Virus record (IMG/VR): IMGVR_UViG_3300030102_004953
Source of the DNA: an uncultured virus (IMG/VR IMGVR_UViG_3300030102_004953)
Lineage: Duplodnaviria > Heunggongvirae > Uroviricota > Caudoviricetes
Strand: one strand, 5' to 3'
Length of the DNA stretch: 64,000 nucleotides
This document shows positions 16,478-35,149 of the stretch, one piece after another. The position numbers were made by a program, and so were the translations under genes. The notes below the pieces were generated by a model that was given only the letters and a program-made list of their open reading frames with translations, made no database searches and was not told the origin of the DNA. How positions within the stretch are numbered: position 1 is the first letter of the stretch; each line of letters begins with the position of its first letter.

Positions 16478-16914
16478 TCTTTTATAATACCCATATCTTT
16501 ACAAGCATCCATAAACTCAAACTTATCATAAGTTTTTGCATTTTCTACATCTAAGAATTGTTGATGTCCCTCATACTCACCCTCTTTTCCATTTGGAACT
16601 TCTATCACTTGTGCAAACTTCCACTTATAGTTACTTGGTTCGTGTTTGGATGTCTCAGGAAAAATCATACCTTTTGCACCCATATTCAAAATTGATGGGA
16701 ACCAAACTATCTCACGTGTTTCATCTACAAATTGTAAAATCTTAACTGATTCTGGCATTGTTTTCATATAATCTGCAATCTCTAAAGATTTTTCTACAAA
16801 TCTACTATCTGACATAAATCCACAATTAAAACACATATAAGATGAAAATTCTTTTTGCTCTTCTACAAAGCAGTTCTTTGATAAACAATGTGGGCAAGTT
16901 ATTTTTGTTTCCAT
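16474..16914 (-). CDS. hypothetical protein with N-terminal zinc ribbon
   Basis: CPHC...CFNCG; start at the TAATG overlap. Confidence 0.7.
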   Translation of the reverse strand: METKITCPHCLSKNCFVEEQKEFSSYMCFNCGFMSDSRFVEKSLEIADYMKTMPESVKILQFVDETREIVWFPSILNMGAKGMIFPETSKHEPSNYKWKFAQVIEVPNGKEGEYEGHQQFLDVENAKTYDKFEFMDACKDMGIIKE

Positions 16915-17675
16915 TATATCCAATCCTTCGTTATCTTTAATCTTGTATAATCTCCTGTGCCATCTTGTGCTAATGTGTCAGGACCTACAAGCTTCGTTGT
17001 ATGTTTCATTTCTGAATCTTTCGTATCATAAATAAATAGTTGGTACAAAGGTTCTCCAAATGGTAATCTTATATGACTTCTACCATCAGAGAAATCAAGA
17101 GTTACAAACGCATTTATGAAAGCCATCTTTCTCCACTTATCATTTCTTTGAACTCCAGCTGCTACTTCTATATTTGGTATAGGTTTTCTGTAAAGTGGTG
17201 GAACCATCAACATCTCATAGTTCTTAGGTAGAATAGCAGCCCAAGGACCTGTTAACTTAACTAAGAATTGTTTTTCTTTTTGAGCTATCGGTGTACCCTC
17301 TAAAGAATTATAACTAGATTGTATACTACACTCAAACCTATTTGATGCGAGTTCGAAGTTAAAAAAGTTGTTCTCGTGATTATAGTAAAAATCTACATCA
17401 CACCACATAGGAACTATGAAACCTGATTTGATAGCACCACTTATGCCAGGACATACTTTAGCAGTTTGTGTATATTGATTCTTTACACTTTTGTTTAGAT
17501 GAGATATAAAACCACTATCACTTTTGTAACCATACTTTAATGGATTAAAATCTCTGAAAGGTGGTAGCTTTCTCCACCAAGTGGGTTGTTTACCTTTAGC
17601 AGGAACTATCGGTGCTCTTTCATAAACTGACTTATTGTTAGTTACAAATTGTACAACCTTTTTTCTTTTGAACAT
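16914..17675 (-). CDS. hypothetical phage protein
   Basis: KVCPG...GFIVPMWCD motif; coupled ORF. Confidence 0.65.
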   Translation of the reverse strand: MFKRKKVVQFVTNNKSVYERAPIVPAKGKQPTWWRKLPPFRDFNPLKYGYKSDSGFISHLNKSVKNQYTQTAKVCPGISGAIKSGFIVPMWCDVDFYYNHENNFFNFELASNRFECSIQSSYNSLEGTPIAQKEKQFLVKLTGPWAAILPKNYEMLMVPPLYRKPIPNIEVAAGVQRNDKWRKMAFINAFVTLDFSDGRSHIRLPFGEPLYQLFIYDTKDSEMKHTTKLVGPDTLAQDGTGDYTRLKITKDWI

Positions 17676-19042
17676 TAATTAACCTTTTTTAACTTAGGCA
17701 ATTTTACCTTTGGTGTAGGCTGATTAGTCTCACCTTTATCTCCTTTTGCACCTGCAGTCTTTTTCAACTTTGGTAGTTTTATTGCAACTTGTTTTGGAAA
17801 GTTTGGTAAGTTTTCATCTAATATAGTCTCTAACTTATCCCTCATAGCTTTCATTGAAAATTTACTTTTGTTTACGTGTGCACATAACTTAGCTTTTTTC
17901 TCGTACTTCTTATAGTTTTTGAAAACATCTTTCAAGATAGCTGATGCTTGGCTGTAGTTTACAGAGAACCATTTCTGTCCTTCACAAGTAAAATCTTTTG
18001 GAAAAGCATCTTTTGGCGTACCAACTAAACTGCCCGGTAGTAAAACTGCATTTTTATGATTTATAAAATCCATATGCCCACTCCAACCTGATACTATCAC
18101 GGGCTTACCACTTAAACTAGCTTCAAGTAGTGGGCGTCCAAATCCCTCACCGTGTGTGAACGATACGTGAGCCTTTACCTTTGGGTGATTGTACAACTCA
18201 TTCATTTCTTCATCTTCTAAATCACCGTGTAAAACATAAACATTAGGTAGTGATTTAGCCTTTACAGTTTTTCTGATATCTTCTATCTTTTTTAAGATTT
18301 CATTTCTTCCTATGACTGAAAAATCAGCACCACTTGTTTTTAAAATTAAAGCTGGTGTTTTCTTTTTATTCTTAAAACTTTCAAAGAATGTTTTTACTAA
18401 CATACCAGTATCTTTCCTATCATTACCAAGTCCACCTTGTAACCAATGTCCTACAAACAGAAAACAAAATGTTTCTGATATCTTATTCATCTCTTTCTTT
18501 AGTTCTTTTGATATCACTTTTGTAGGTTTAAATATAGATGTATCAGCACCCTCAAACAACACCTCGTTTTTTGTGGTTAACTTTAACTCACCCACTTTTT
18601 TAGATGAGTCCTGTTTATCATTTATATCATAAGTTGAGTTAGCTATAGAATCTCTTGAATGGTTAGTAGAAAAAAGAATCATTTCTGCATTATTAGCACC
18701 TTGTACCCACTTTGGTGGAACTACAGTAGCTTCAAACCCAGCAGTAACACCTATGTTAAACTTAGCCCATTTTTGAAACTCATTTGGAACTGTAACTTGA
18801 AATGATACATCGAAAGGAATCTTACCATCCTCTTGTGTCATTATCCTATCTATAATTTTTCTATCTCTCTCACTCTCAACACTAAGTGCATTTTCTGGTG
18901 TATTACCCCATTTTTGTGGCATAATCTTAACATCATACTTATCGATATCAATTAAAGCGTGAACTAAATCTCTAGCTCTTGAACCATAACCACTTCGTGT
19001 TCCTATAGGACCTGAAAATAATACTCTTATTTTATCACTCAT
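17675..19042 (-). CDS. glycosyltransferase family 4 (GT-B)
   Basis: TRSGYG, FLFVGHW, GEGFGRPLLEA, WSGHMDF. Confidence 0.9.
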   Translation of the reverse strand: MSDKIRVLFSGPIGTRSGYGSRARDLVHALIDIDKYDVKIMPQKWGNTPENALSVESERDRKIIDRIMTQEDGKIPFDVSFQVTVPNEFQKWAKFNIGVTAGFEATVVPPKWVQGANNAEMILFSTNHSRDSIANSTYDINDKQDSSKKVGELKLTTKNEVLFEGADTSIFKPTKVISKELKKEMNKISETFCFLFVGHWLQGGLGNDRKDTGMLVKTFFESFKNKKKTPALILKTSGADFSVIGRNEILKKIEDIRKTVKAKSLPNVYVLHGDLEDEEMNELYNHPKVKAHVSFTHGEGFGRPLLEASLSGKPVIVSGWSGHMDFINHKNAVLLPGSLVGTPKDAFPKDFTCEGQKWFSVNYSQASAILKDVFKNYKKYEKKAKLCAHVNKSKFSMKAMRDKLETILDENLPNFPKQVAIKLPKLKKTAGAKGDKGETNQPTPKVKLPKLKKVN

Positions 19043-19050
19043 TATAACTC

Positions 19051-20448
19051 CTACGACTTAAACATTTCATAACGTTTTCTTGGTTTGAACTTTTCAAATA
19101 CAGTATTTATATCATTAATAAATCTTTTACCCATATTGTCAGCACTCAAACCAGTCTCTTCCATTAAACAAAACTCTCTACCTTTTAACCCAGCTTTTTT
19201 TCTTTCTTCTTTTGGTGTTTCGTACCACTCATATATTCTATCAGCTGCATCTTCCCAACTTGGTCTATCATCAAATATATATGGTGTCGGTGGTGAACCT
19301 TGTAATGAACGATTGGTAGGCCAGATTGGCTTTACCCACTCTCCGTGAGTTAAATCTGGATTATCCTTCCATTTTTTAGCATCGTGTAAGGAATGTACCC
19401 AACTATAATCCTCATCCGTTAAAAGTTTATCTTTGTACTTAAAACCACATTGGTCTTGCATACCACCCGTAACGTTAACAATGATTGGTGTACCAGCCAT
19501 AAGAGCTTCACAAGTTCCTAATCCAAATCCCTCGTTACTAGCTATATTAATACATACATCAGCCATATTATAAAGTACATTCAACTCTTCTTGTTTTATT
19601 TGATTTGTAGAAAAGAATATGTTAGCATCAGGACCTGCTATAGCATCTTTCACTTTCACCAAATCAGTTCCATTCTGATCTACAGGAGATGTGTGCATTA
19701 AAAATGCCACCTTATCTTTTTTATCTTCAGGTAACATATCAACGAATGTTTTCCAAGCCAAAATTAAATCACCAGGCAGTTTTCTACGAATGTTTCTAGC
19801 ATTGTAAAATAGAATAAACTCAAAATCCTTCTTAAACTTACTTCTGTTATCTGCAACATCTTTCAATCCTGCTTCATCGGTAAGTGGTTTAAATACCTTC
19901 TCATTAATTCCGTGTGGAATATATGTGGCTTGCCAATCTTCATACGTACTTCTTACATTCTTAACAATATTAACAGTCTGTTTTGATATGTTAAACAATG
20001 AATCTACTGAATCATAATACTCTCTATTCCACATAGGATATGGTAAATCATCCCAAATATTATAATACAGTATCGGTATCTCTTGTCTTATCTCGTGTTC
20101 CATTTGAAATAGCCAAATCCAAAATCTTGGGTCTGTATAAATCATAATAGCATCTGGCTTTTCTTTACCCAACAACATTCTAACAAGAGCTTGGCTACCA
20201 TAACCTGCTACTGGATATATTTTAAGATAAGGTTTAGTTCCATCTTCACGTTTTGTAGTACCCCAATCTTTCATAACTGCATCCGATAAATCTATCTCTT
20301 TTCCTTTTTCAGGATGGTCTATAGCACCACCTAACTGAACCCAATCGAACTCGTGAATTGTTTGTCTTACGATTTCCGCAGACATTGTTGCAACCCCACT
20401 ACTCATTCTCAAATCATCTGCTAAGAGTAGAATCTTTTTTCGTTTCAT
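19051..20448 (-). CDS. glycosyltransferase family 4 (GT-B)
   Basis: SGVATM, ARNIRRK, NEGFGLGTCEALMAGTPII. Confidence 0.9.
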   Translation of the reverse strand: MKRKKILLLADDLRMSSGVATMSAEIVRQTIHEFDWVQLGGAIDHPEKGKEIDLSDAVMKDWGTTKREDGTKPYLKIYPVAGYGSQALVRMLLGKEKPDAIMIYTDPRFWIWLFQMEHEIRQEIPILYYNIWDDLPYPMWNREYYDSVDSLFNISKQTVNIVKNVRSTYEDWQATYIPHGINEKVFKPLTDEAGLKDVADNRSKFKKDFEFILFYNARNIRRKLPGDLILAWKTFVDMLPEDKKDKVAFLMHTSPVDQNGTDLVKVKDAIAGPDANIFFSTNQIKQEELNVLYNMADVCINIASNEGFGLGTCEALMAGTPIIVNVTGGMQDQCGFKYKDKLLTDEDYSWVHSLHDAKKWKDNPDLTHGEWVKPIWPTNRSLQGSPPTPYIFDDRPSWEDAADRIYEWYETPKEERKKAGLKGREFCLMEETGLSADNMGKRFINDINTVFEKFKPRKRYEMFKS

Positions 20449-20455
20449 ATAACCT

Positions 20456-20698
20456 CTAACCTCTTATAACTTTCTTACTACCAACTTCTACTTCAAAATA
20501 ATCTAACATTTCTAATTTGTCTGCGCTGTCTGCCATCAATCCAAGTTCCTTCTCAATTTCATCCATTACATCTCCGTGTTCACCTATACCTACAGAATTG
20601 TTCATTAGGTTTTCTACATTTATGCGATGCTTTTCAATCTGTGCCTTGAAATTCATTCTAAGTGCATCTATATAATCATCTCTCATATTTATGCTCAT
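20456..20698 (-). CDS. hypothetical protein
   Basis: ORF with SD, ATGA overlap. Confidence 0.65.
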   Translation of the reverse strand: MSINMRDDYIDALRMNFKAQIEKHRINVENLMNNSVGIGEHGDVMDEIEKELGLMADSADKLEMLDYFEVEVGSKKVIRG

Positions 20699-20880
20699 AG
20701 TCCACTCCCACTTACTTCTAATGTTTTATAGCTAATTAACTTAGCCTGATACGTTTCGTCATTTAAGAATAAATGTATAGAGCGATTTACCAACTTCTGT
20801 AAGGTAAACTCTTCCCTAAGACTTTTTATTCTAAAATCTTTATGTAATTCTGGTAAAATTTTTACTGATGTCAACTTCAT
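20695..20880 (-). CDS. small ribbon-helix-helix-like DNA-binding protein
   Basis: LTSVKI beta-pattern followed by two amphipathic helices. Confidence 0.5.
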   Translation of the reverse strand: MKLTSVKILPELHKDFRIKSLREEFTLQKLVNRSIHLFLNDETYQAKLISYKTLEVSGSGL

Positions 20881-20910
20881 AAGATATACCTATATAACTA
20901 TATTTGTATA

Positions 20911-20918
20911 TATAAATA
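20911..20918 (-). promoter_or_regulatory. TATTTATA motif (putative phage promoter)
   Basis: same octamer recurs upstream of several genes in this window. Confidence 0.55.
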
Positions 20919-20922
20919 TTAA

Positions 20923-21285
20923 CTAACTTTTAAAAACTACTTTTTTATTTTGCTTTTTTGTCTCTTTTATGAGAGTCTGTAGATTGGCTGGTAAATCATC
21001 CTTATTATTAATAAAAACAAAAAGAGAATCGATTGATTGTGCTAATCTCTTACTACTACCAAATTGAGCTTTTATAGATTTCTGAAAAGGCTTTATATCT
21101 TCACACTCTATGTCAAACTCGTTTGCATATTTTCTAGCTAATGCCTCAGCGCCATTCTTTTTCCCACGAGTACATATAATTAAATGACCCTCAAAGAACT
21201 TATTGAGTTCAAAGATACTTTTTTTTACTTTTACTTTATTTGAATATTCTTTAACACCACTTACACCAATTCTAATTTTCTTCAT
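20923..21285 (-). CDS. SLOG/DUF2493-like protein
   Basis: IGVSGVKEY...GAEALARKYA. Confidence 0.6.
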   Translation of the reverse strand: MKKIRIGVSGVKEYSNKVKVKKSIFELNKFFEGHLIICTRGKKNGAEALARKYANEFDIECEDIKPFQKSIKAQFGSSKRLAQSIDSLFVFINNKDDLPANLQTLIKETKKQNKKVVFKS

Positions 21286-21664
21286 CAGTCCTCTTTTGTT
21301 TTTTAACCATTGGTGTAGTGTTATTTATAAAGTTAAAAATACGTTTAAAATGTTCTAAACCTGCTATTGGATTAGCCAGTATCTTAAACCTAAAATTTGT
21401 GTGTAAATTCAAACCATCGTGTATGTAGAAAAAAGAAAAGTCTCTATTAGCACCTAGTTCTTCATTATGAAAGTCTGTTTTGAAATTAAAACTATTCTCA
21501 TACTTTTTTACAAACTCTGCTATAGTTCCATAATCTTCATTAACATAAAACTGAAAATGAACATTTCCATATTTCGTTTGAATATTTTCTACTCTACTCA
21601 TCACCGCCTCTTCTATTTCCGTTTTAAAAAAAGAATTGAGGTGAAGTCTTATTGATGGTATCAT
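21272..21664 (-). CDS. hypothetical protein
   Basis: coupled ORF. Confidence 0.6.
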   Translation of the reverse strand: MIPSIRLHLNSFFKTEIEEAVMSRVENIQTKYGNVHFQFYVNEDYGTIAEFVKKYENSFNFKTDFHNEELGANRDFSFFYIHDGLNLHTNFRFKILANPIAGLEHFKRIFNFINNTTPMVKKQKRTDEEN

Positions 21665-22257
21665 TTGATAATCTCCACATTACTGGCTTGGTTTTTGTCA
21701 TACGTTAAAAAGAAAACTTGAAATAATCTACCGCTTTCGAATGAGTGTCCGTAATAGTTTGTAGCATCGTGCCACAAGGTGCCAGGATATGCCACTAATC
21801 TATTGAAAAGTAATCCTATTCTAGCAACTTCTTCCCATTGAGTTTTATCAAAAAGATTTATTCCACTTTCAACTACATACTTGTTAATATCTTCACTTGA
21901 AATTTCTAAAGAATTATCTATCTTATTTCTGTAAAAGGATGTACCTGCATTTACAGGTTGTTTTCTATCTAAAAATACAACTGCAGCTAGAGGATCGACA
22001 TCTGTATGTGGAAAAGTTTTATCCATAGATGTACATACTTGAAATCTTCCACACATATTTCCGTGTGGATACACTTGACGTCCAAAGTATCTTGATAACT
22101 TATCTATAGCTTCTTCAGTAACATATTCTAATTCAGTCCTCTTACCTGAAAACCCTTTTGCACCTGTAAGCTCTTCACAAGTTTTGTACTCTTGTTTAAG
22201 TGCTAAGTCATATACCTGCTCTGGATTATCATAAAACCAATCTTCTACTATAATCAT
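21661..22257 (-). CDS. 2OG-Fe(II) oxygenase-like (DUF6445-like)
   Basis: IIVEDWFYDNP, HTD, GTSFY, FNRLVAY..LWH, GRLFQVFF. Confidence 0.75.
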   Translation of the reverse strand: MIIVEDWFYDNPEQVYDLALKQEYKTCEELTGAKGFSGKRTELEYVTEEAIDKLSRYFGRQVYPHGNMCGRFQVCTSMDKTFPHTDVDPLAAVVFLDRKQPVNAGTSFYRNKIDNSLEISSEDINKYVVESGINLFDKTQWEEVARIGLLFNRLVAYPGTLWHDATNYYGHSFESGRLFQVFFLTYDKNQASNVEIIK

Positions 22258-23123
22258 TTTATACCCTTATCACAATGTTCAGTTTGATTAAACTCGCAAA
22301 ACCTACAATTTTTCTTAGAAGCCTCAGCTCTGTATTCTTTTAATAAATAGTTACCATCTTCATCAAAACAATCATCTATGAAATCTTTCAATCTGTATAA
22401 AACTTTGTTCATAGACGGCTTACCATTCGCTGGTGTAAATAATTGTACTTTCTTTTGAGGAAAGTCTACATTCTCATATAACTTTCTTTTCAGAATAAAG
22501 TATTCAACATCTATCTTATCAGGTGATATTTCCCATTGTAGCGATAAGAATTGTTTATACAACAATAACTGGTCAGTTTTATTCTTATCAGCTTTCATAT
22601 ACTTGTTCCAACCTTTAGTTGAAGTCTTGATATCTATTATTTTTATCCTATCTCTGACAGTATCCTTTAGAACTACATCCATAAAACCTATAAAATTCAC
22701 TGCACTACTCATCTTATAATTTAACGGCATCTCTATCCCAAGAAGTTCATAACCTCTCTTATTAAAGTATTGTCCTTTACGTTTTTTAAACCAATCTAAC
22801 AAAGAAACACCATCATTATAGAACTCACCTAAATCTTCCTTAGAGCAAGGTACAAAGTTTTCATCACTATTTTGTTCTTTAGCTTTATTAAACTCTATCT
22901 TTAACTCTTCTAAAAGTCTACTATTGACATCTATAGAATCTGCTTCTTTAATTGTCTTATGAAAAAATGTAGTTAGGTACTCTTGTATTACAGTGTGAAT
23001 AGCACTACCAAATATAGTATGTATATTACCTGTAAAGTCTCTCATATCATCTACATAATTCAACTTCCATCTTTGAGGACATTGAGACCACATCCCAAAC
23101 TGACTATAACTAATTTTTGCCAC
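22254..23123 (-). CDS. PD-(D/E)XK nuclease, Cas4/AddB-like with probable Fe-S cysteines
   Basis: ISYSQ..QCP, GFMD...IIDIKTS, C-terminal CRFC...C. Confidence 0.85.
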   Translation of the reverse strand: MAKISYSQFGMWSQCPQRWKLNYVDDMRDFTGNIHTIFGSAIHTVIQEYLTTFFHKTIKEADSIDVNSRLLEELKIEFNKAKEQNSDENFVPCSKEDLGEFYNDGVSLLDWFKKRKGQYFNKRGYELLGIEMPLNYKMSSAVNFIGFMDVVLKDTVRDRIKIIDIKTSTKGWNKYMKADKNKTDQLLLYKQFLSLQWEISPDKIDVEYFILKRKLYENVDFPQKKVQLFTPANGKPSMNKVLYRLKDFIDDCFDEDGNYLLKEYRAEASKKNCRFCEFNQTEHCDKGIK

Positions 23124-23307
23124 TTGATTCCAATCCTACGTTATTTAATAAATCATCGAATGATATTTCTTCTGATAGTGATATCTTTTCACCACCTAAA
23201 TCTAAATCACCTGCTGGTATTTGTGTTAACATTCTGATGTAAGCGCCTAATACCCTATCATCATCAAATTGTTCACACATTATTTTTAGAGCTTCCATTA
23301 TAGTCAT
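23110..23307 (-). CDS. hypothetical protein
   Basis: ATG at 23307 in TGATG overlap with the upstream small ORF. Confidence 0.6.
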   Translation of the reverse strand: MTIMEALKIMCEQFDDDRVLGAYIRMLTQIPAGDLDLGGEKISLSEEISFDDLLNNVGLESSGKN

Positions 23308-23426
23308 CAATCCATCCACCTTCCATCATTTATTAAGTGATATGTTCTGTGCTTTATAATTTCATACATAAGACCTAACCAAGTCTTTGACTTATATACA
23401 CCAGCTTGACATTTGTATAGATACAT
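23307..23426 (-). CDS. 39-aa protein (MYLYKCQAGVYKSKTWLGLMYEIIKHRTYHLINDGRWMD), not in the ORF track
   Basis: translated by hand; stop/start overlaps at both ends. Confidence 0.7.
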   Translation of the reverse strand: MYLYKCQAGVYKSKTWLGLMYEIIKHRTYHLINDGRWMD

Positions 23427-23809
23427 TATTTACCCCACTTACCTCTACCAACAATCGTAGCCATAATACCATAGTTAGATACATCAAGATACGCATCTTC
23501 TAATGGTTCATCTTTTACAGCTGATTTTCTATCACCAAGTAATAATGTCTTTACACGTTGTAGCTTATCATTCATACGAAACCACAAGCCTGTAAGTGAT
23601 AGTTTGATTTCTTCAGGTGTTACCAAAAAAGTTCCTACACTAATATTACCAGGACCATAATCGTGTTGTTTATGTAGGAATAATTCATATTGTTCTCTTT
23701 GAATCTTCTTAAACTCTTCTGTCATCAAGGGCCATTCTTCTTCCATCTTTTGAATAACATCATAACCTTTATCATTAGTGCCTGTTTTAGATTCTTTTAT
23801 AACTTTCAT
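23426..23809 (-). CDS. DUF1599-like (nucleotide-modification-associated) protein
   Basis: KQHDYG, RMNDKLQR, EPLEDAYLDVSNY. Confidence 0.75.
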   Translation of the reverse strand: MKVIKESKTGTNDKGYDVIQKMEEEWPLMTEEFKKIQREQYELFLHKQHDYGPGNISVGTFLVTPEEIKLSLTGLWFRMNDKLQRVKTLLLGDRKSAVKDEPLEDAYLDVSNYGIMATIVGRGKWGK

Positions 23810-23812
23810 TAC

Positions 23813-24025
23813 TTAATTACCTTTCTTAGTTGTGTAATCTCCACCTAACTTAGCTCTCATTTCAGATTTATATTCATTAACACCCTTACCTAAATCCAAA
23901 TACCAACCTTGATTGGGTTTTCTTATCTCATCTAATATAGCATCAGCTATAGTTTCTTTAGCTGATTCAGATGCTAAGTTAGCACTTTGAAAATTACTTA
24001 GTACTTTTACTATTAATTTTTTCAT
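23813..24025 (-). CDS. hypothetical protein
   Basis: ORF in operon. Confidence 0.6.
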   Translation of the reverse strand: MKKLIVKVLSNFQSANLASESAKETIADAILDEIRKPNQGWYLDLGKGVNEYKSEMRAKLGGDYTTKKGN

Positions 24026-24650
24026 CTTCAATCCTCTTTATTTTCTTTTTGATTCCTTTGTTAAGATAATATACATATATATTTTTATTTTTGCGTTTTA
24101 TAAAAAATATATTTTCATCTCCAGCTTCCCACCTACGTCTTATTTCTCTACTGTATGGTTTTTCTGGTTGACTAAGAGACCTACTATGATATTCTTTACC
24201 ATCTACCATAAGAACTCTGCCTGCTGCAGTTTGTCCGTATGATACAAAATTACTAGCCTTATAAATTACCCCCTCGTGTCCGTAATGTCTATCTGCAAAA
24301 GATACAATAACTTCATAATTTGTATTCTGTTTTAACCACTTGATAGTTTGTGATACAAAGAAACTTTCACTATTCTTAGGTGCTTCATCTAAACAAACTA
24401 ATCTTCTCAACTCTACACATCTATCAGGATTAACAGGATTATATTTTTTAGCCGTGTTTGGCATTGATGGTATAGCGTACATCATAGCACCAACCATTCT
24501 TGGAATATTAAACTTACCTGGTGAAAATAATGCAAAACACTCTAAACCTTGTATTCCATTAGTATTATGACTATAGTGATACTTTTCTATAAAGTTTTGT
24601 ATAGCACTTCTTGGAACAAGTTCCACAGAATATCCCTCTAACTTACTCAT
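23994..24650 (-). CDS. Mom-like GNAT-fold DNA modification protein (copy 1)
   Basis: HYSH, VELRRL, PKNSESFF, VSFAD..GHEGVIYKASNF. Confidence 0.8.
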   Translation of the reverse strand: MSKLEGYSVELVPRSAIQNFIEKYHYSHNTNGIQGLECFALFSPGKFNIPRMVGAMMYAIPSMPNTAKKYNPVNPDRCVELRRLVCLDEAPKNSESFFVSQTIKWLKQNTNYEVIVSFADRHYGHEGVIYKASNFVSYGQTAAGRVLMVDGKEYHSRSLSQPEKPYSREIRRRWEAGDENIFFIKRKNKNIYVYYLNKGIKKKIKRIEDEKINSKSTK

Positions 24651-25093
24651 ATTTTAAGTTTCTTAACCAATTTTTTATCAATACCATATGTATCGAAAAT
24701 ACTAAATAATTCTTCTTTACCACTGTCTGAATTTAACAATAAATCTATATACGTGTCAACCTCTTTTTTGCTCGCCTCATAATGTTTACACAATAAATCA
24801 ATCACCCAACTTTCATTTAATTTATCACGAGTTTTCTTACCTTTCATCCACTTGAAATAGTAATTACTTTTTGGTATAAGCTCACTATAAACTTTATATG
24901 TCTCACGTGATTTTAAACCTAACTTTTGCACCTCATTAACTAAATCAACAAAATTAGAGTTCATAGATATAAACCTATTAACCATATACACACTAAACTT
25001 TTTCTGAGAAGCTTCATCGAAAGTATCCCAATTTTCCTTAGTGTTAGTTATCTTTTTGCACCACTCCCACGGTGTTTTAACTACTTTACTCAT
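24647..25093 (-). CDS. clamp loader small subunit (T4 gp62-like)
   Basis: FSVYMVNRFISM...NEVQ...YFKWMK; near the gp44-like gene. Confidence 0.75.
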   Translation of the reverse strand: MSKVVKTPWEWCKKITNTKENWDTFDEASQKKFSVYMVNRFISMNSNFVDLVNEVQKLGLKSRETYKVYSELIPKSNYYFKWMKGKKTRDKLNESWVIDLLCKHYEASKKEVDTYIDLLLNSDSGKEELFSIFDTYGIDKKLVKKLKI

Positions 25094-26582
25094 AAGTGTT
25101 ATCCCTTAATAGGTTTTTATAATAACGTATTTCTTCATCTATTGTTTTCTTAGCAAGTTCAAAATCTACACTTCTATGTGCTTCAGTACAATGTGATTTA
25201 TCTATAAACTTAATAGATTGCATAACTGATAACCAAGATGATAAACCAAAATTTTCTTCTAAATCATCTATAAACATATCTTTACCTGTAGGAAGTCTTT
25301 TATTCTGATATATATCTTCCATAAAATTATCAAACACTTCAGCATATCTTATGTTTCTTTTAGCGTGTTTCCAAAAGTCTGTCGTTCCTCTGTTATTTAT
25401 ATAATGTAGTTGTATAAAACTAAGAAAATGTGAAAATGTTTTACCACAATGTGTATTATAAAGTTCTGATATCAAATTGGTATCATTAGAATTAGATAGT
25501 AAACCAGCCAAGTAATTAGCTTGTCCTGTAGTTATCGTGGTAGCATTAGATTCTAAAGGTTCTATAAAGCCTGATGCTAATCCTACAGCATACATATTTT
25601 TTATACCCAATCGTTCAAACATACCTGTTTTCATATCTATTTTAGAAGTGATATCTATCTTACCAAATCTACTTTCTAATTCTAACACAGCATCATCCGC
25701 TGTAATAAAATCCGAACTATAAACATAACCTCTACTCGTTTTGTTTCTTAATGGTATCTCCCAACTCCAACCACTATTAAACGCTGTTGCAGTTACAAAA
25801 TTCTTTCTAAGAGGTTCATACTTTTCACCAACCTTTTCAAATGCTATAGCACTATCTACAGGTAAAAAATCCTTAAAACTAACAAACTTTTCTTTGAGAA
25901 TCCTTTCGAATAGAACTCTACTAAATCCACTACAATCTATAAAAACATCACCTGATATTTTACTACCATCTTCACAAATAACCTCTTGACAATTACCAAC
26001 GATATCTTTTTTTACATCTACTACTTGATTCTCAACAACTTTGATTCCATATTTCTCTACACAAAAATCAGCTATGTAATCTATAAACTTATTTATATCA
26101 ATATGAAGAGCGTAAGGACCTACTCTACTCGGATAATTCCATTGAACGTCTGTAGTAAAGGTTTGCTCTACAAACTTCTTGATAGGTTTTTTTCTACTCA
26201 ACATCATTTGTGTTCCTATAGCACTAATATCTACCCTCTCATCATTAGCTATAAAAACTTCATCCATCGTGAGTTCATCTTCTACAAAAGGTAAACCAAA
26301 TACTGGATGATAATAATCATACTCTTGAAACCCAACAAACTGAGTTCCCCATTTGTAAGTTCCATTGGATTTATTTAGTATATCATTTTCATCTATTCCA
26401 ATAGCATTGATTAATGTTGCCAGACTTGGGAATGTACTTTCCCCTACTGATAACCTATCTACTTTTGGTGATTCTATTAAGGTTACATCAATAACCTTAG
26501 TAGGATTAGTCTTTTTTACATAAGACAAAGCAGTAGCCATCAACCAACCAGAGCTACCTCCGCCTATTATTACTACCTTCAT
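25086..26582 (-). CDS. flavin-dependent halogenase (tryptophan halogenase/PrnA family)
   Basis: GGGSSG, VGEST, TYKWG (catalytic Lys), IDCSG, WSWEIP, FIEPLES. Confidence 0.9.
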   Translation of the reverse strand: MKVVIIGGGSSGWLMATALSYVKKTNPTKVIDVTLIESPKVDRLSVGESTFPSLATLINAIGIDENDILNKSNGTYKWGTQFVGFQEYDYYHPVFGLPFVEDELTMDEVFIANDERVDISAIGTQMMLSRKKPIKKFVEQTFTTDVQWNYPSRVGPYALHIDINKFIDYIADFCVEKYGIKVVENQVVDVKKDIVGNCQEVICEDGSKISGDVFIDCSGFSRVLFERILKEKFVSFKDFLPVDSAIAFEKVGEKYEPLRKNFVTATAFNSGWSWEIPLRNKTSRGYVYSSDFITADDAVLELESRFGKIDITSKIDMKTGMFERLGIKNMYAVGLASGFIEPLESNATTITTGQANYLAGLLSNSNDTNLISELYNTHCGKTFSHFLSFIQLHYINNRGTTDFWKHAKRNIRYAEVFDNFMEDIYQNKRLPTGKDMFIDDLEENFGLSSWLSVMQSIKFIDKSHCTEAHRSVDFELAKKTIDEEIRYYKNLLRDNTYE

Positions 26583-26842
26583 TAGTCTCCGACTAAGTTT
26601 TCAACACTATCACCACCTGTACCAATATCTTTTAATTTACCACAATCACCACAAGCAAAAACTTGAATAGGTATAATACCCTCTTGACCTGTTGGTGATA
26701 TCAATGCTGATATCTTTTTCAAAACATATGATTCAATAAATAAAGTATTATTACAATCATCACATTTCATTGTTTCGGCTTCTTTTAAGTTAACCTTAAC
26801 TTGTGCCTGAGGTTTCTGTTTTTTCATTGGATGCATACTCAT
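26582..26842 (-). CDS. small zinc-ribbon protein
   Basis: CDDC...CGDC. Confidence 0.7.
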   Translation of the reverse strand: MSMHPMKKQKPQAQVKVNLKEAETMKCDDCNNTLFIESYVLKKISALISPTGQEGIIPIQVFACGDCGKLKDIGTGGDSVENLVGD

Positions 26843-27756
26843 TTTATTACTCCTAGTAATTCTATTAACATAGCCATAGCATTAATTTCTTTATCAACTA
26901 CTACAGCATCACTCTCTTGATACTTTGCGACAATTAGTATAACTTCCGCTACGTGTCCTTTACCAAAATCATCTACATTATCATAAAGTAACCTATACAA
27001 ATCTTCAAACTGAGTAACCTTACTATCTAATAGTAATTTTCTAATACCATTAAATGCAGTTTTCTTATCTTCTTTTAGTAACTCTAAAACTTTTATCTTG
27101 TAATCGTTCTGAATAACACTAGTCTTATCCATCTTTAATTCACCATCAACAACTTGTCTTTGTGCAGCGTTGATTACTCTACGGATATCAGGATACCCAC
27201 TATTAACTATATCAGCAACATCTTTTATTTCATACTTTACACTTTCTTCAGATAAGATATGTACTAATTGTTGTGCCACTTGTTTTCTATCAGGCGGTAT
27301 AACTTGAAATGTCTGACAACGAGATTGTATAGGTGATATTATCTTCTCAACAAAATTACAAGTTAGAATGAATCTACAATGTTTACTGAATGTTTCCATC
27401 ATATTTCTTAAAGCAGCCTGAGCATTTGGTGATAGGTAATCACACTCATCCAAGATAATCACTTTCATATCTTGGAATCCCATTGTAGCTGCAAAGTTCT
27501 TCATTCTTGTTCTGACATTTTCTACGCCTGTTTCATCAGAAGCGTTTATGTAAATATAATCACAATCTATATTACCAACTAATAATTTAGCAAGAGTTGT
27601 TTTTCCTGTACCAGCTTTTCCATACAATAAAAGGTGTGGTAAATCCCCACTATCAAGATACAACTTAACCTTATCTTTTAGCATATCGTTACCTACATAA
27701 TTATCAAGTTGTTGTGGGCGATATTTCTCTACCCATAAAGTATGATTTTTACTCAT
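26839..27756 (-). CDS. clamp loader AAA+ subunit (gp44/RFC small subunit-like)
   Basis: WVEKYRP, GKAGTGKT, LDECD, SRC. Confidence 0.95.
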   Translation of the reverse strand: MSKNHTLWVEKYRPQQLDNYVGNDMLKDKVKLYLDSGDLPHLLLYGKAGTGKTTLAKLLVGNIDCDYIYINASDETGVENVRTRMKNFAATMGFQDMKVIILDECDYLSPNAQAALRNMMETFSKHCRFILTCNFVEKIISPIQSRCQTFQVIPPDRKQVAQQLVHILSEESVKYEIKDVADIVNSGYPDIRRVINAAQRQVVDGELKMDKTSVIQNDYKIKVLELLKEDKKTAFNGIRKLLLDSKVTQFEDLYRLLYDNVDDFGKGHVAEVILIVAKYQESDAVVVDKEINAMAMLIELLGVIK

Positions 27757-28513
27757 TTGTTATTCCTTTATTAACTTCGATTTCTTCGATTGGTGGTAAG
27801 TACTCGTCTGCATTTGTTGGATAATCTTTTGACTCGTACTTCATAAATTTTTTAAATCTTTTATTCTCTGATTTACTTCCTAAAAAATATATATACCTAT
27901 GTTTCTCTGGCTCTCTTCTTCTCCAAAATGTATGTCCTATAGCAGATTTTAGTTTATCTATATTATGGCTACCAAATCTAGCGAAAACAGTTCTACTATG
28001 TATCCAATCATATGGTTCTTCTACCAATGATACTGAATAATTAGGCATAAGATTCAATCCTGCACCTTGATAAATCCAATTTGTAGCTTTGTAGATACCA
28101 CCTAAATGCAACCTATCTGGATCTGCATAACTTATTAATACCTTAACACTTTTATCATAATGTTTCAACCATTTAAACGATTGTGATATTGAATACGATT
28201 CTATGTTTTTACCATAACCATCGTGAATGAAAAGCCTTGTTAATTCAAGAACCGATTCATAATCTATTATTTCTTCTTTGAACAAAGAACCGACTACACT
28301 TCTGCCAACTGGATGCCCATAAGTAAGGCATCCAATTAGCTTTTCTTCTTTCTCACCCTCAAAAAATCTATGTTCCGTATCTTCTTGATAGAAGATTCCA
28401 ATAGCGTGCCTACAGAGTGAGAACTTACGACTATAATGATTTTCTACAATCATTTTCTTAGCCGTCTTTTTGTCTATCTTTCTAAGTACAACCTTAGAAG
28501 TATCAACATACAT
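27749..28513 (-). CDS. Mom-like GNAT-fold DNA modification protein (copy 2)
   Basis: HYSRK, LELTRL, KNIES, ISYAD..HLGGIYKATNW. Confidence 0.8.
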   Translation of the reverse strand: MYVDTSKVVLRKIDKKTAKKMIVENHYSRKFSLCRHAIGIFYQEDTEHRFFEGEKEEKLIGCLTYGHPVGRSVVGSLFKEEIIDYESVLELTRLFIHDGYGKNIESYSISQSFKWLKHYDKSVKVLISYADPDRLHLGGIYKATNWIYQGAGLNLMPNYSVSLVEEPYDWIHSRTVFARFGSHNIDKLKSAIGHTFWRRREPEKHRYIYFLGSKSENKRFKKFMKYESKDYPTNADEYLPPIEEIEVNKGITNE

Positions 28514-29229
28514 TAACTATCCTGATTAGCCACCAAGAAGTAAGTTGAATCAAACTCATCAATCTTAAAGTTCATCTTAGCAAGACCTTCTGAACTGATT
28601 TCAAGCATTGAACTTTCACAATCTTTATTAGCTGATAGTATCTCTTTCATTACGTGTGCATTGAAAGTTAACTTATCAACCTCAGAATATTCAACAACTT
28701 CAGTTCTAATTGTAACTCTATTTGATGCGATTGAACTATAACCTATTACGATATCAACTTCACCATCTCTACAAACCACAGTGCAGGTATCCACCTCTGA
28801 CAATGCACTCTTACCAGCTAAGAACTTACCAATGAACTCTCTATCAACTTTAACTTTCAAGCTCATATCAGGTAGATTTTTCATAGCAGGAACTTTAGGT
28901 ATCACACTTTCATCACTTAACATAAAAAGTGATTTAGCGACACTATCATCAAACGTAACAGAAATAGATTTATCACCTGATTTCTGTACATCTAATTTAA
29001 CATTGTCTCCCATAACAGATAGCATCTTTAAGAAAACTTCTGTATCGTATACTCCGATACTCTCATCTCCAAATCCTAAACCATCTGCTTCAACCCTACC
29101 AAGCATAGATTTATCAGCAGTTATAAAATCACAACTAAGAACTTTGCCTTTGGATTTTATCATAACTGATGGAACTCTATTTCCAAGATAGTATTTCTGT
29201 ATGAAATTGATTAGACCATTTTTATTCAT
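28513..29229 (-). CDS. sliding clamp (gp45/PCNA-like)
   Basis: size, position between polymerase and clamp loader, ISSEGLAK...YFL C-terminus. Confidence 0.75.
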   Translation of the reverse strand: MNKNGLINFIQKYYLGNRVPSVMIKSKGKVLSCDFITADKSMLGRVEADGLGFGDESIGVYDTEVFLKMLSVMGDNVKLDVQKSGDKSISVTFDDSVAKSLFMLSDESVIPKVPAMKNLPDMSLKVKVDREFIGKFLAGKSALSEVDTCTVVCRDGEVDIVIGYSSIASNRVTIRTEVVEYSEVDKLTFNAHVMKEILSANKDCESSMLEISSEGLAKMNFKIDEFDSTYFLVANQDS

Positions 29230-29258
29230 TTATCATAACCTCATTTATTATTAAGTAG

Positions 29259-31748
29259 TTAAAAAAATCTTTCAAGTGTATTTTTTTTATCTACGGGCAT
29301 ATCCCAAGATAAAGCCTCATAGAACATCTGAATTTTCTTTTGAAGAGCTTGTTTATACATTTTATCTGTATCAATATATTGTTTTATAAACTCTATAACT
29401 TGTCTTGGGTCTTCATATCCCTTGTAAGCCATAGTTTGGAATCCATATGGATTGTTCTTCATATAAACCCATTTTATCTTTTGAGATTCACCTATCTTTT
29501 CGTATCTCTTTAGTTTGTTTATCTGAAGAAAGTTGTTGTAATTATAAGCTGATTTAACGTGTACGGGAGTACCAAGTTTAGGTATGTGTAATCCATCCTC
29601 ATTCATATCAGAATACTTCTTAACACCTTTTACACCAATAGGCATAGATATCTTGTCAAAATCAATTAACTTCATACTCTTCTTAAAGTTTATTATATAC
29701 TCATCTAATTTATCTTTAGGAACATCCATTAAAATATCTTCTAATAGTTTAGATAATACTTTTTTCATAGCGGCTGGAAAACTACTACGAACTGTATCTA
29801 ATCCTTTTACCATCATCTTATCAACTTTCTTTCCGTTATCATTGATAATTTTCATACCATATCTTTTTTTAGTTATAAACAAACCACCTTTAGCAATCAA
29901 CTCTTGTTTGATATCAAACCTATGTTCATCTATATTACAAAACTTTTCAGCAAAGTAATCATACGATTTGTTAAGAAAAGTTTGTATCTCACTAGCAATC
30001 TCAAGGATAGCCTTTGACATTTTATCTTCGTCTCTGATATCCATATCAGGAAATCTTTTCTTAACAATAGGCACAGCAGAATAAAATACAGAATCAGTAT
30101 CAATGTAGATACAATAGTCCTCATTCGTTTCTAATTGCTTATTGTAATAATGATTACCTATCTTCTTGGTAAACTTAATAAGGGATTGACCTGTATAAGT
30201 TGTAGCCTCTGCGTTATCCAAATCATAAAATCTAAATACAGGTAAACCTAACACACCATACAATGAATTTAATAGAATCTTTTGTAGATATTGCCTCCTA
30301 TCAAAATAATCTGATTGATTCTTGTCTCCCTCTTCGTGAAACTTCTTAGATAACTTACGATACTGAACCCTCTCATCAAACCACTTCTCAAGTAAAGCTG
30401 GTAATAATCCTTTTACTTCACTTTTATACATTACACCATTTGTAGCGATGGTAGCTTTTGATGTTTCAAGGTACTTCTTTAATTCAGTTTCAGTTAACTT
30501 ACCAACTTCCTTTTGGTTCTTAGTTATAGTATATGTTTTTTTATTATCTGCTTTTATAAACTCTTCAGGATTCCAGCCATTGATTTTACCAATCTTTGTT
30601 TCAGGTGATATATTCAAAGACATAATACACGATGGATACATTGATGTGATATCTAAATCATAAACCCATCTATGTTTACCTTTTTGTGGCTCTTGAACAT
30701 AAGCACCCACAAACTTTTCATCAGGATTCTTTGTAGCTCTATTCTTTGGTTTATTAGGTGCTATAATATTTTTGTTCTTTAGGTAAGTAAGTATAGCACC
30801 CTCAAGATAACGAGAACTCATAAATATATCCTCATAACCACAATGCCCTAAGTGAGCCAAACCACGAGCAATTTCTATAAAATCAAGTTTATCATCTAAC
30901 ATCTTAACAAGTCTAACATCGTGAATGTTATACTCAATAAACTTATTAATATCATTTTCATATAAATCGTTAAGTGTTCCCTCATACTCAACCTTACGTT
31001 CACCTAATTCATAATCACCAATAGCATCTAATCTATATGAAGACCTCTCACTAAAAGTAAACTTTCTATACAACTGAAAGTAATCAAGTGTGTTTACACC
31101 TGCTATTTTTATAGATAGGTTATCTCTATCTATCCTCTTAACTATATTTATTGGCGATAAACACGTTGCCATATCATAACCTAAAACTTGTTCCATTCTA
31201 TTAAACAAGTAAGGCATATCAAAAAACTCAATGTTCCAACCTGTTAGAATGGTTGGAGCAATCTCTAAATACTTTGTCATAAAGTTTTTTAATAAGTCAT
31301 ACTCATTATCATATGAATGAATTTGTTCTGAATCTTCTACCTCATTTTTAGTATCTAAAACAAAACAATGATACTCTTCTGTTAAGTCATCGTAAGTAGC
31401 GATTGAAGTTATAGTGTTATCAGCTCTTCTAACATCAGGAAAACCTTCAGTAACTTCAACCTCAATATCTAATACAAGTACCTTATGCCCCTCTGAAACT
31501 TCTTCAGATTCGTGATACATATCAACCAACGTTCTAATCTCAGGCATCACATCGGATTCAAATAAACCATCCTCATCCTTTTCAAACTTATAAACTTTTT
31601 GTAACTTATCACCATACAAAGAAATATATTGTCCATTTGGCGATTTAATATATGCATACTTCTTATGTGGAAAGGATAAATAACCTTTTTTATCATCCCA
31701 CAAATGAATTTTATTTTTTCTGTTATCGTAAAATATAGACTGATACAT
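29259..31748 (-). CDS. family B DNA polymerase (gp43-like)
   Basis: exonuclease DIE, GWNIEFFD, YNIHD; polymerase DITSMYPS, KILLNSLYG, YIDTDS, KKRY. Confidence 0.97.
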   Translation of the reverse strand: MYQSIFYDNRKNKIHLWDDKKGYLSFPHKKYAYIKSPNGQYISLYGDKLQKVYKFEKDEDGLFESDVMPEIRTLVDMYHESEEVSEGHKVLVLDIEVEVTEGFPDVRRADNTITSIATYDDLTEEYHCFVLDTKNEVEDSEQIHSYDNEYDLLKNFMTKYLEIAPTILTGWNIEFFDMPYLFNRMEQVLGYDMATCLSPINIVKRIDRDNLSIKIAGVNTLDYFQLYRKFTFSERSSYRLDAIGDYELGERKVEYEGTLNDLYENDINKFIEYNIHDVRLVKMLDDKLDFIEIARGLAHLGHCGYEDIFMSSRYLEGAILTYLKNKNIIAPNKPKNRATKNPDEKFVGAYVQEPQKGKHRWVYDLDITSMYPSCIMSLNISPETKIGKINGWNPEEFIKADNKKTYTITKNQKEVGKLTETELKKYLETSKATIATNGVMYKSEVKGLLPALLEKWFDERVQYRKLSKKFHEEGDKNQSDYFDRRQYLQKILLNSLYGVLGLPVFRFYDLDNAEATTYTGQSLIKFTKKIGNHYYNKQLETNEDYCIYIDTDSVFYSAVPIVKKRFPDMDIRDEDKMSKAILEIASEIQTFLNKSYDYFAEKFCNIDEHRFDIKQELIAKGGLFITKKRYGMKIINDNGKKVDKMMVKGLDTVRSSFPAAMKKVLSKLLEDILMDVPKDKLDEYIINFKKSMKLIDFDKISMPIGVKGVKKYSDMNEDGLHIPKLGTPVHVKSAYNYNNFLQINKLKRYEKIGESQKIKWVYMKNNPYGFQTMAYKGYEDPRQVIEFIKQYIDTDKMYKQALQKKIQMFYEALSWDMPVDKKNTLERFF

Positions 31749-31755
31749 AGGTTAG

Positions 31756-31785
31756 AATATAACTATTTTTCCTCATTTAAGTCAA
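31756..31785 (-). promoter_or_regulatory. sigma70-type promoter TTGACT-N18-TATATT upstream of the polymerase gene
   Basis: same spacing as the elements at 44039-44068 and 44344-44373. Confidence 0.7.
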
Positions 31786-32302
31786 GCTTTTTATTTTTAG
31801 GATACACTTTCATTTTATCCAATTCTTCTTCTGAGAAGTTCATAAAGTAATCAGTTTTCCAAAGCGTTCTATGTGTTTCATCAAACTGGGTATCACTTCC
31901 TATATTAATCAAAAAGTAAGGTGCTTTCTCTCTCGTATCTTCTTCAGCAATTTTCCATTCTTCAAATGGTGATAAACATATAGCTTTTAAACCTTTGAAT
32001 CCTTTTTCTTTCATTAGTATTTGTATTGCTTTCTGAAATTTAGCTCTATCAACATCTTTCCAATTTAATCCATCCGTATTCTCACAAACGAATAGTGCTG
32101 ATGAGTACTCACTTTTTTTAAATTTTTCTAATAATTCTAAGAAAGGTTTTTTGTTTGGTTTCCAAACTTCTATCATTAACTTATCATTTTTCCTCTCTGC
32201 TTTTACAAACGGGCAAACAGGCATTCCACCAAAGTTTTCACTTGGTTTTTCTAAGTAATCGATATACTCATTGACTTCTTTTAATATTTGTTTTTTACTC
32301 AT
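31763..32302 (-). CDS. hypothetical protein
   Basis: GGMPVCPF motif; no function recognised. Confidence 0.7.
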   Translation of the reverse strand: MSKKQILKEVNEYIDYLEKPSENFGGMPVCPFVKAERKNDKLMIEVWKPNKKPFLELLEKFKKSEYSSALFVCENTDGLNWKDVDRAKFQKAIQILMKEKGFKGLKAICLSPFEEWKIAEEDTREKAPYFLINIGSDTQFDETHRTLWKTDYFMNFSEEELDKMKVYPKNKKLDLNEEK

Positions 32303-32313
32303 AACATTTAGAG

Positions 32314-32339
32314 AAAAAGGGGGGAATAAATCCCCCCTT
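32314..32339 (-). terminator. intrinsic terminator after the TonB-dependent receptor gene
   Basis: AAGGGGGGA-TTTAT-TCCCCCCTT stem followed by a T run on the minus strand. Confidence 0.9.
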
Positions 32340-32346
32340 AATCAAT

Positions 32347-35121: not shown

Positions 35122-35149
35122 ATCGAATCTCCTCATTATTGTTATGTAC

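Follow-up and report, generated by a model that had tools for sequence, protein, structure and literature searches.

Two divergent Mom-family proteins encoded in the replisome operon of an uncultured marine T4-like phage

Phage-encoded Mom proteins are best described in phage Mu, whose enzyme (PF25680; PDB 8BV8) uses Gly-tRNA(Gly) as the donor to place glycine on adenine N6 in double-stranded DNA (dsDNA), acts at SAS motifs on ~20% of dA, and forms an adduct that rearranges to 6-NcmdA (Silva et al., Nat Commun 2026, PMC13219725). The same paper describes a tight homodimer that acts after replication, on dsDNA, and a gene that is expressed late in the lytic cycle. Residues R111 and S124 of Mu Mom are essential, the R151A variant is without detectable activity, variants at H58, Y59, W48, Y159, and W181 are strongly impaired, and activity also requires a helix-turn-helix (HTH)-like insert (residues 175-209), which is proposed to sit in the major groove (PMC13219725). 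Thousands of virome Mom homologs are reported there, a few of which (two of them named), mined by random pick, were tested. The solution of this chemistry dates from 2026 and covers Mu alone. Here, two divergent Mom-family proteins, Mom1 and Mom2, are described from the minus-strand replisome operon of an uncultured marine T4-like myophage (IMG/VR record IMGVR_UViG_3300030102_004953), as represented by a window of 64,000 nucleotides, the whole stretch of DNA that was analyzed.

The window proteins resemble Mu Mom in belonging to the same Pfam family, in the GNAT fold with a Mom-specific insert, in the presence of six catalytic residues in both, in being phage genes without a dedicated partner enzyme, and presumably in an anti-restriction role. 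They differ in number, Mu having one copy and the window phage two divergent ones, and in not keeping R151 and W48. The settings of the genes also differ: Mu mom is located at the end of the genome, where the gene for the translational regulator Com overlaps it, and is under transcriptional control by Dam, OxyR, and C, whereas the window Mom genes belong to a replication operon of early/middle type in a lytic T4-like phage. Among cultured phages, the closest protein is YP_009209713 of Polaribacter phage P12002L, annotated as Mom-like; it shares 42.9% identity with Mom1 across 88% of its length and is encoded beside DNA methyltransferase genes in a replication/early region. P12002L is, however, a siphophage with a single copy and no clamp/clamp-loader operon, and its protein falls outside the window clades on the Mom tree. 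No paper describing paired Moms in T4-like phages was found in a literature search; "paralog" is absent from the text of PMC13219725, supplements aside, and its authors may have seen these clades, while "Mom" is absent from the main text of the MetaGPA paper (PMC8670742).

Family membership and catalytic residues of Mom1 and Mom2

A model-generated annotation of the same DNA (the original prediction) had placed one Mom-like gene between the sliding clamp and the clamp loader and a second, diverged copy after the small loader subunit. Both placements were confirmed: Mom1 (254 amino acids) is encoded at 27749-28513 and Mom2 (218 amino acids) at 23994-24650, each on the minus strand, and the two proteins are 32% identical over 166 columns. 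Mom1 and Mom2 scored 145.7 bits (E 1.9e-42) and 132.1 bits (E 2.6e-38), respectively, against PF25680, for which the cut-off is 27.1 bits, and matched phrog_1384 with E 1.3e-42 and E 2.3e-51. The profile search that the original prediction had proposed as a check for a non-Mom GNAT family thus returned two true Mom proteins, and both are genuine members of this family rather than of another GNAT family. The description of Mom as a GNAT that hypermodifies adenine was likewise right, and the donor in Mu is now known to be Gly-tRNA(Gly) (PMC13219725). When a profile of 131 Mom sequences was run against the 64-kb window at E <= 10, Mom1 and Mom2 were the only open reading frames (ORFs) matched. 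A search of PDB sequences gave 8bv8 ("Methylcarbamoylase mom") as the sole significant match for either protein (Mom1, E 5.2e-6; Mom2, E 1.1e-11), and an NCBIfam search returned no match for the Moms or for three neighboring proteins considered below (DUF1599, DUF6445, and the nuclease). An AlphaFold2 model of Mom2 (mean predicted local distance difference test score [pLDDT] 84.4) found 8bv8_A as its best Foldseek match (E 4.5e-13; template modeling [TM] score 0.74), insert region included, with other GNATs at TM <=0.51.

Alignment to the Mu Mom sequence taken from NC_000929 showed that Mu residues H58, Y59, R111, S124, D149, and Y159 are retained in both window proteins. Mom1 residues H26, Y27, R93, S106, D131, Y141, and W170 correspond to H58, Y59, R111, S124, D149, Y159, and W181 of Mu; among 36 Mom1 orthologs, D131 is present in at least 90% and the other six are invariant. 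The equivalent Mom2 residues, H25, Y26, R83, S96, D120, and Y130, are invariant in 27 orthologs. The HTH-like insert has diverged far more between the two proteins (4/35 positions identical) than the core (36/133 identical), and each Mom shares 19-25 of 38-39 insert positions with its own ortholog. This is the pattern that would be expected if the two inserts read different DNA contexts. Mom2-type proteins are not rare, with 928 sequence clusters in public data.

Operon packing and two accessory slots

All genes across the 64-kb window run on the minus strand, and PHROG and Pfam scans support its T4-like myophage identity (tail sheath, tube, baseplate, UvsX, gp32, a DnaB-like helicase, ribonucleotide reductase [RNR], and ThyX) and further identify a long block of sugar-nucleotide and glycosyltransferase genes. 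The operon is headed by polB, a family B DNA polymerase (T4 gp43-like; 29259-31748; PF00136 E 1.1e-35, PF03104 E 3.9e-23, phrog_262 E 1.4e-186), followed by the sliding clamp (gp45-like; 28513-29229; phrog_223 E 9.4e-14; no Pfam family, and conserved beside polB in relatives), Mom1, and the clamp-loader large subunit (gp44-like AAA+; 26839-27756; phrog_168 E 4.4e-85, PF00004 E 1.5e-18). An 86-residue cysteine-rich protein (p86; 26582-26842), possibly a zinc ribbon given weak Zn-ribbon Pfam matches (E 0.012), and a halogenase come next, and then the clamp-loader small subunit (gp62-like; 24647-25093; phrog_225 E 3.1e-14; PF16790 Phage_clamp_A at 25.4 bits, below the cut-off of 27) and Mom2. A 72-residue ORF with a TTG start (23813-24031; in the ORF list, no Pfam or PHROG family), a DUF1599 protein, a 69-residue ORF (23110-23319; in the ORF list, with 77% identical copies in loci L102 and L118), a Cas4-like nuclease, and a DUF6445 protein complete the series. 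The halogenase and p86 between the loader subunits, and the two small ORFs flanking DUF1599, were additional to the original prediction.

The genes are tightly packed, frame junctions consisting mostly of overlaps of 1-14 nucleotides or spacings of 3-29 nucleotides, and the largest intergenic gap in the operon (106 nucleotides) follows DUF1599. The stop of the clamp gene overlaps the start of Mom1 by 1 nucleotide, and Mom1 overlaps the gp44 gene by 8; Mom2 overlaps the gp62 gene by 4 nucleotides and is itself overlapped at its 3' end by the 72-residue ORF (38 nucleotides). Co-location of the Moms with the replisome genes is certain and their co-transcription very probable. A sigma70-like site lies just upstream of polB (31785-31756); the sigma70-like scan was without enrichment (53 matches vs 61 +/- 7). 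The word TATAAATA of T4-type late promoters gave 21 matches vs 14.2 +/- 3.4 in shuffles, none at a telling position. In a scan of 20400-32400, the sole strong terminator-like hairpin (32339-32317) lies upstream of the operon, and the only other coding-strand hairpin downstream of the clamp is a weak one within the DUF6445 gene. No meaningful repeats were found in the same interval, and no tRNA genes or Rfam families were found.

The locus is supported by independent sequence data. At least 0.88 of the sampled words of the stretch are present in each of 19 DNA runs, and contigs from three DNA runs, taken from three studies, cross 24551-27384, 23681-26125, and 21661-23504 and differ little from the window there, such that independent contigs span the p86-halogenase-gp62-Mom2 and DUF6445-nuclease-DUF1599 junctions. 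The gene order is therefore real and not an assembly artifact, and the phage population is widespread in marine metagenomes. One joint, in run X10, skips 24605-26829, with unknown letters between, and probably derives from a relative. The nearest virus record (G001; 23% of words shared, 21% complete) gave no Mom match, and neither did control genomes.

Related loci (labeled L001-L204) were fetched from viral contigs with Mom1 (80 loci), DUF1599 (the best 80 of 590), and Mom2 (43 loci, 42 of them new [L163-L204] plus L152, already obtained with DUF1599) as baits, and the window proteins were mapped by tblastn onto the 202 loci compared. Relatives share a backbone of polB-clamp-gp44-p86-gp62-DUF1599-nuclease-small ORFs-two glycosyltransferases; p86 is kept between the gp44 and gp62 genes in most of them, and in the near relative L163 a 66-residue ORF occupies the position of the 72-residue ORF (only position was compared). 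Sixty loci were informative, being unique by gp44 DNA and having two junctions visible (clamp/gp44 and post-gp62), and the proportions among these bait-fetched loci are co-occurrences rather than population frequencies. No Mom was present at either slot in 34/60, both Mom1 and Mom2 were placed as in the window in 21/60 (one with an extra gene), and Mom1 occurred without Mom2 at its slot in 5/60 (L018, L019, L097, and L111, as well as L017, which has a Mom2-type gene between polB and the clamp), while Mom2 without Mom1 was found in 0/60. Of the 34 loci without a Mom, 25 have 6-24 nucleotides between the clamp and gp44 genes, and in 9 the slot is filled by something else. Where the slot after gp62 was readable among the 80 DUF1599-bait loci, Mom2 was nearly always absent, being present only in L152 and L162. 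Mom1 and Mom2 are thus accessory genes in two slots of a conserved backbone.

Other occupants of these slots were identified by a Pfam scan of 29 proteins from representative loci, and swappable modification cargo of this sort (N6/N4 methyltransferases and DruA-type GNATs) fills in relatives the slots that Mom1 and Mom2 hold here. N6_N4_Mtase was found strongly in L098 (3332-4309; E 2.7e-47), just above the cut-off in L137 (2380-3588; 28.4 bits vs a cut-off of 26.7) and L120 (4862-5941), and just below it in L090 (1420-2634). DruA (PF14236) occupies the clamp/gp44 slot in L038 (13476-14684; E 2.1e-21) and L051 (14956-16176; E 3.2e-19), and DruA-like proteins follow Mom2 in L185 (8605-9201) and L190 (5882-6490); the presence of this bacterial defense-system family inside phage replication operons suggests that it may act on DNA too. 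2OG-FeII_Oxy_3 and NT5C adjoin Mom1 in L001-L015, and ClpP is also among the slot contents. DNA-marking enzymes stand out among the contents of the two slots, which behave like cassette sites. No DruA gene is present in the window itself, and no methyltransferase was found among the ORFs scanned against Pfam and PHROGs (nearly all ORFs of at least 100 amino acids).

A Mom tree of 131 sequences (84 distinct), rooted on Mu, resolved three well-supported phage clades. Tandem pairs are divided between clade B (first gene) and clade A (second gene); clade A also comprises Mom1 and its orthologs, and clade C, on a long branch, contains Mom2 and its orthologs. Clade C genes also occur between the exonuclease and helicase genes (L182-184) and in tandem with clade A between helicase and RNR (L200, L201). 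Divergent Mom pairs therefore come in three layouts: split as in the window, or in tandem either upstream of polB or between helicase and RNR. The partner of clade A varies by phage group; in the window it is clade C, whereas the tandem group upstream of polB has clade B. The names of loci L140 and L180 contain the number 3300002484, that of the metagenome from which Mom Homolog A of PMC13219725 came; should this homolog fall in clade A, B, or C, activity would already be known for one of them.

What the two Moms may do

With moderate confidence, the locus is read as carrying two swappable accessory Moms that act as separate adenine modifiers for restriction evasion. Both are genuine Mom proteins and probably active as DNA adenine modifiers. 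The substrate, donor, product, and timing that we infer for the window proteins, and their independence of one another, would be as follows. By analogy with Mu, where glycine is taken from Gly-tRNA(Gly), each Mom would take an aminoacyl group from a charged host tRNA and place it on N6 of adenine in dsDNA, each enzyme in a short sequence context of its own; the adduct would rearrange to a carbamoylmethyl-type group, and restriction enzymes would be blocked. Since the genes overlap those of the clamp and clamp loader, both Moms would be made together with the replisome, and new phage DNA would be modified soon after its synthesis. Acting separately, each on its own target context and possibly with its own donor, the two enzymes would jointly give wider protection without forming an obligate pair. 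Large lytic phages keep two divergent Moms with intact active sites in a replisome operon. Should motif or donor differ between them, they would be a natural pair for working out Mom specificity, and they would point to adenine hypermodification being common, though unmeasured, in marine viral DNA, with bearing on restriction evasion, long-read base calling, and enzymatic virome library preparation. A stronger form, held tentatively and on the unlikely side, is that the two Moms lay two different marks, through different tRNA donors or a different base or sequence context, and that the slots are a general cassette site at which T4-like phages exchange Moms, DruA-type proteins, and methyltransferases to counter host restriction; an abundant marine phage lineage would then have a doubly hypermodified genome, with a second chemistry that has never been described.

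Several observations weigh against two independent Mu-like enzymes, and some of them favor an obligate pair, in which a heterodimer would replace the Mu homodimer or the two proteins would carry out consecutive steps on the same adenine, neither working alone. The donor, base, and product are carried over by analogy from one characterized relative, to which core identity is only ~25-28%. In the Mu R151 column, Mom1 has D (with R at +1) and Mom2 has H (with R at -1); this column varies across all clades of the 131-row alignment (G/D, K, or H/E/Q by phage clade, and R in 2/9 other loci), so R151 appears to be a feature of Mu rather than one that defines the family. The place of Mu W48 is taken by K in Mom1 and by S in Mom2, and W is retained in no clade; the Mu enzyme is a tight homodimer whose monomeric W48A variant is nearly inactive (PMC13219725), and with W48 lost from both window proteins, their oligomeric state may differ from the Mu homodimer, a heterodimer included. 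Prediction of a Mom1 + Mom2 complex from two alignments scored 0.00 in both runs, without controls, and has no bearing on a heterodimer. In the distant group L020-L069, tandem Moms lie just upstream of polB in 39/42 informative loci, the remainder being single Moms in L021, L022, and L065 (with at least 1 kb of upstream flank), and 8 further loci were too short. Together with the finding that the Mom2 type was never seen without the Mom1 type where both slots were visible (0/60), this would fit functional coupling as well as shared descent; the recurrence of divergent pairs in three layouts also speaks for an obligate pair. Two further reservations concern the data themselves, i.e., the fetching of loci by bait and the source of the expression evidence, which is a single metatranscriptomic library (run X20) whose contigs span the gp44/Mom1 junction and gp62-halogenase and include part of Mom2, with some bins without cover, and may be DNA carry-over. 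An obligate pair is nonetheless considered unlikely. Both proteins have the full catalytic set bar R151, and neither resembles a dead scaffold; Mom1-type genes stand alone in L018, L019, L097, and L111, as do genes of a related clade in the three single-Mom loci of the tandem group; and the partner of the Mom1-type clade is clade C in some phages but clade B in others. Moreover, the co-occurrence of the two genes reflects few independent events: on a gp44 tree of 61 rows, Mom1 requires 6 state changes and Mom2 4, and only 2 independent contrasts fell on supported branches, so that a tree-aware test of joint gain and loss gave no usable p-value. What stands of the original prediction is a pair of Mom genes in the replisome operon, by family, residues, and packing; its two-enzyme system is less certain, as Mom1 occurs without Mom2 at its slot in five loci.

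More remote readings concern where, on what, and with which partners the Moms act. Replication coupling, as the original prediction had it, would have the Moms carried along by the sliding clamp and modifying DNA at the replication fork, and the Mom1 gene does lie between the clamp and clamp-loader genes and overlap both. The window polB ends in ...LERFF and the polymerases of relatives in ...KFF, ...FFSF, or ...FFGF, and comparable aromatic C-terminal peptides occur on each of the 49 clade A Moms in the tandem group L020-L069 (...INFW in 45, ...KTFW in 3, and ...INYW in 1), where the INFW-type end may be a clamp-binding tail. The window Moms, however, end in ...PIEEIEVNKGITNE (Mom1) and the basic ...KINSKSTK (Mom2), neither of them aromatic; of 19 related tails from clade A1, 0/19 end in an aromatic pair resembling the polymerase FF, and 18/19 have a non-aromatic last residue. 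Gene position indicates co-expression at most, and Mu Mom modifies finished dsDNA, in lysates and with purified parts, i.e., after replication (PMC13219725). Physical coupling is thus considered improbable. A similarly low probability is given to one or both Moms acting on a target other than adenine (another base, RNA or tRNA, or protein), or to Mom2 being a regulator and no enzyme. GNAT substrates are not readable from fold or alignment (Silva et al., PMC13219725), and Mom2, on its long branch, has E in place of W181 (retained in Mom1) and is without the C-terminal (P)YPK motif present in Mu Mom and in members of clades A and B. Mu Mom is nonetheless by far the best structural match of Mom2, insert region included, the catalytic residues of Mom2 are invariant across its 27 orthologs, and DNA methyltransferases in the same slots of relatives point to DNA as the shared target. 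Least credible of all is a larger system in which the Moms would cooperate with DUF1599, the nuclease, and the oxygenase, the nuclease degrading unmodified DNA and the oxygenase or DUF1599 processing the modification. These genes are adjacent and co-directional with overlapping frames, the Pfam name of DUF1599 is "nucleotide modification associated domain 1", and 2-oxoglutarate (2OG) oxygenases adjoin Mom1 in L001, L010, and L012. Yet gp62-DUF1599-nuclease is retained in the 34/60 loci with no Mom at either slot, Mom2 follows gp62 in only the two DUF1599-bait loci named above, and DUF6445 was matched in 0/202 loci, including L164, the closest relative that extends beyond the nuclease. The distant homologs of DUF6445 sit in cyanophage oxygenase arrays with no Mom annotated in the stretches compared, and Mu Mom, as described in the text of PMC13219725, requires no partner enzyme. 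Gene distribution thus largely refutes the larger system: the five-gene grouping of the original prediction does not hold, and the nuclease that it had pictured as acting on unmodified DNA is equally well retained where there is no Mom.

Neighboring genes and other observations in the window

The downstream DUF1599-like gene, Cas4-like nuclease, and oxygenase of the original prediction were borne out by matches to PF07659, PF12705, and PF20043, respectively. The DUF1599 protein (127 amino acids; 23426-23809, minus strand) scored 27.3 bits against PF07659 (cut-off 25), with a match spanning positions 16-59 of the 61-position profile, and its nearest Atlas clusters carry PF07659. It has 590 relatives in the viral_contigs collection, the best 80 of which are 72-91% identical, and it is placed after gp62 in loci both with and without Moms. 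Its model consists of four helices (pLDDT 76.8). Foldseek found nothing for this model in the PDB at E <= 0.001; VIA-align over 48,161 chains reached a best Z of 7.3, for generic helical hairpins and within the helical noise range of the tool; and phmmer found nothing among PDB sequences at E <= 10. An E..ED...D pattern and a weak 2p06 row would raise, as an idea only, a MazG-like pyrophosphatase. The nuclease is a PD-(D/E)XK protein of 289 amino acids (22254-23123, minus strand; PF12705 E 6.5e-20, covering residues 4-279; phrog_69 exonuclease E 4.4e-24). Its four cysteines, one N-terminal and three in a C-terminal CxxCx7C, are Cas4-like, and by analogy they may bind an Fe-S cluster. Whether or not a relative carries a Mom, the nuclease gene is found after DUF1599 or gp62. 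Since both genes are kept in the 34/60 loci without any Mom, DUF1599 and the nuclease are backbone genes of the replication module and not Mom partners, and their annotation as such is unwarranted.

The DUF6445 protein (198 amino acids; 21661-22257, minus strand; PF20043 at 30.5 bits vs a cut-off of 24) is of the 2OG-Fe(II) oxygenase type. Such oxygenases are marked by an HxD...H iron triad and a 2OG-binding arginine on a jelly roll, and the HxD...H...R pattern is found here as H-T-D, a distal H in LWHDA, and an R in SGRLF, in alignment with cyanophage 2OG oxygenases. Its distant homologs (24-30% identity) are in tandem 2OG-oxygenase arrays of cyanophages, e.g., Syn9 and S-CREM1. A further 2OG-Fe(II) oxygenase gene lies at 47890-48540 (minus strand) in the window, and in relatives such genes directly follow Mom1 in L001 (8762-9523), L010 (5852-6502), and L012 (8738-9463), recurrently in one subgroup.

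The flavin-dependent, tryptophan-type halogenase (498 amino acids; 25086-26582, minus strand) matched PF04820 over residues 2-464 (E 1.5e-93) and 30 halogenase sequences of the PDB at E <= 1e-5, with tryptophan halogenases from E 3e-56. Flavin-dependent halogenases have GxGxxG and WxWxIP motifs and a catalytic lysine, and the translation contains GGGSSG, WSWEIP, and the K in GTYKWG. The protein aligns over its whole length with the cyanophage halogenase VirX1 (PDB 6QGM; E 4.7e-44) and is only 27-31% identical to homologs in Syn9, Syn10, P-SSM2, and the pelagiphage HTVC008M. It lies between the two clamp-loader subunit genes, its gene overlapping its two neighbors by 1 and 8 nucleotides, and no link to the Moms was found; among the 202 loci compared, a halogenase wedged in this position was seen in this phage only. 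Co-expression of a halogenase with the replisome is odd, and no evidence was found that it acts on nucleotides or DNA. Neither the halogenase nor DUF6445 was matched in any of the 202 related viral loci or has a close relative in viral_contigs, the phage collection gave only distant relatives, and the guanine-plus-cytosine (GC) content of both genes equals that of their surroundings. The two genes are lineage-specific cargo, unrelated to the Moms and of kinds common in marine T4-like phages.

The window has a GC content of ~0.30-0.35 with one richer stretch at 32-36 kb. Here, between the RNR and polB genes, lies a gene for a TonB-dependent-receptor-like protein (935 amino acids; 32347-35154, minus strand; CarboxypepD_reg and Plug domains), with a GC content of 0.37-0.39 vs ~0.31; after it comes the terminator-like hairpin at 32339-32317, the strongest in the region. 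The gene is also found beside polB in relatives (97% identical in L011, 64-81% in others) and is therefore phage-borne cargo and no assembly chimera. An outer-membrane receptor gene is unusual in a phage and may hint at the host group. Near the window end, a NodU/CmcH-type carbamoyltransferase is apparently split into two minus-strand ORFs 51 nucleotides apart (61987-63498 and 63550-63999). The end of the N-terminal domain (Carbam_trans_N positions 263-345) is in the ORF that runs off the window end, and the C-terminal domain is in the downstream ORF, fused to ~280 further residues; the split could be natural, a frameshift, or a sequencing error. On the far side of the operon, a glycan block (2292-20448, minus strand) encodes a UDP-glucose dehydrogenase, a DegT aminotransferase, WbqC, a PIG-L deacetylase, epimerases, a family 2 glycosyltransferase (GT2), and two large GT1-family proteins. 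The two GT1 genes (17675-20448), one of which also matches "GT4 in conflict systems" (PF20706, E 1.6e-7), are conserved backbone downstream of the nuclease. Directly downstream of them is a gene for a 253-residue protein (16914-17675, minus strand) that matches phrog_7084 (E 9.3e-23) and no Pfam family even at E 5, and the next ORF (16474-16923) is conserved in relatives.

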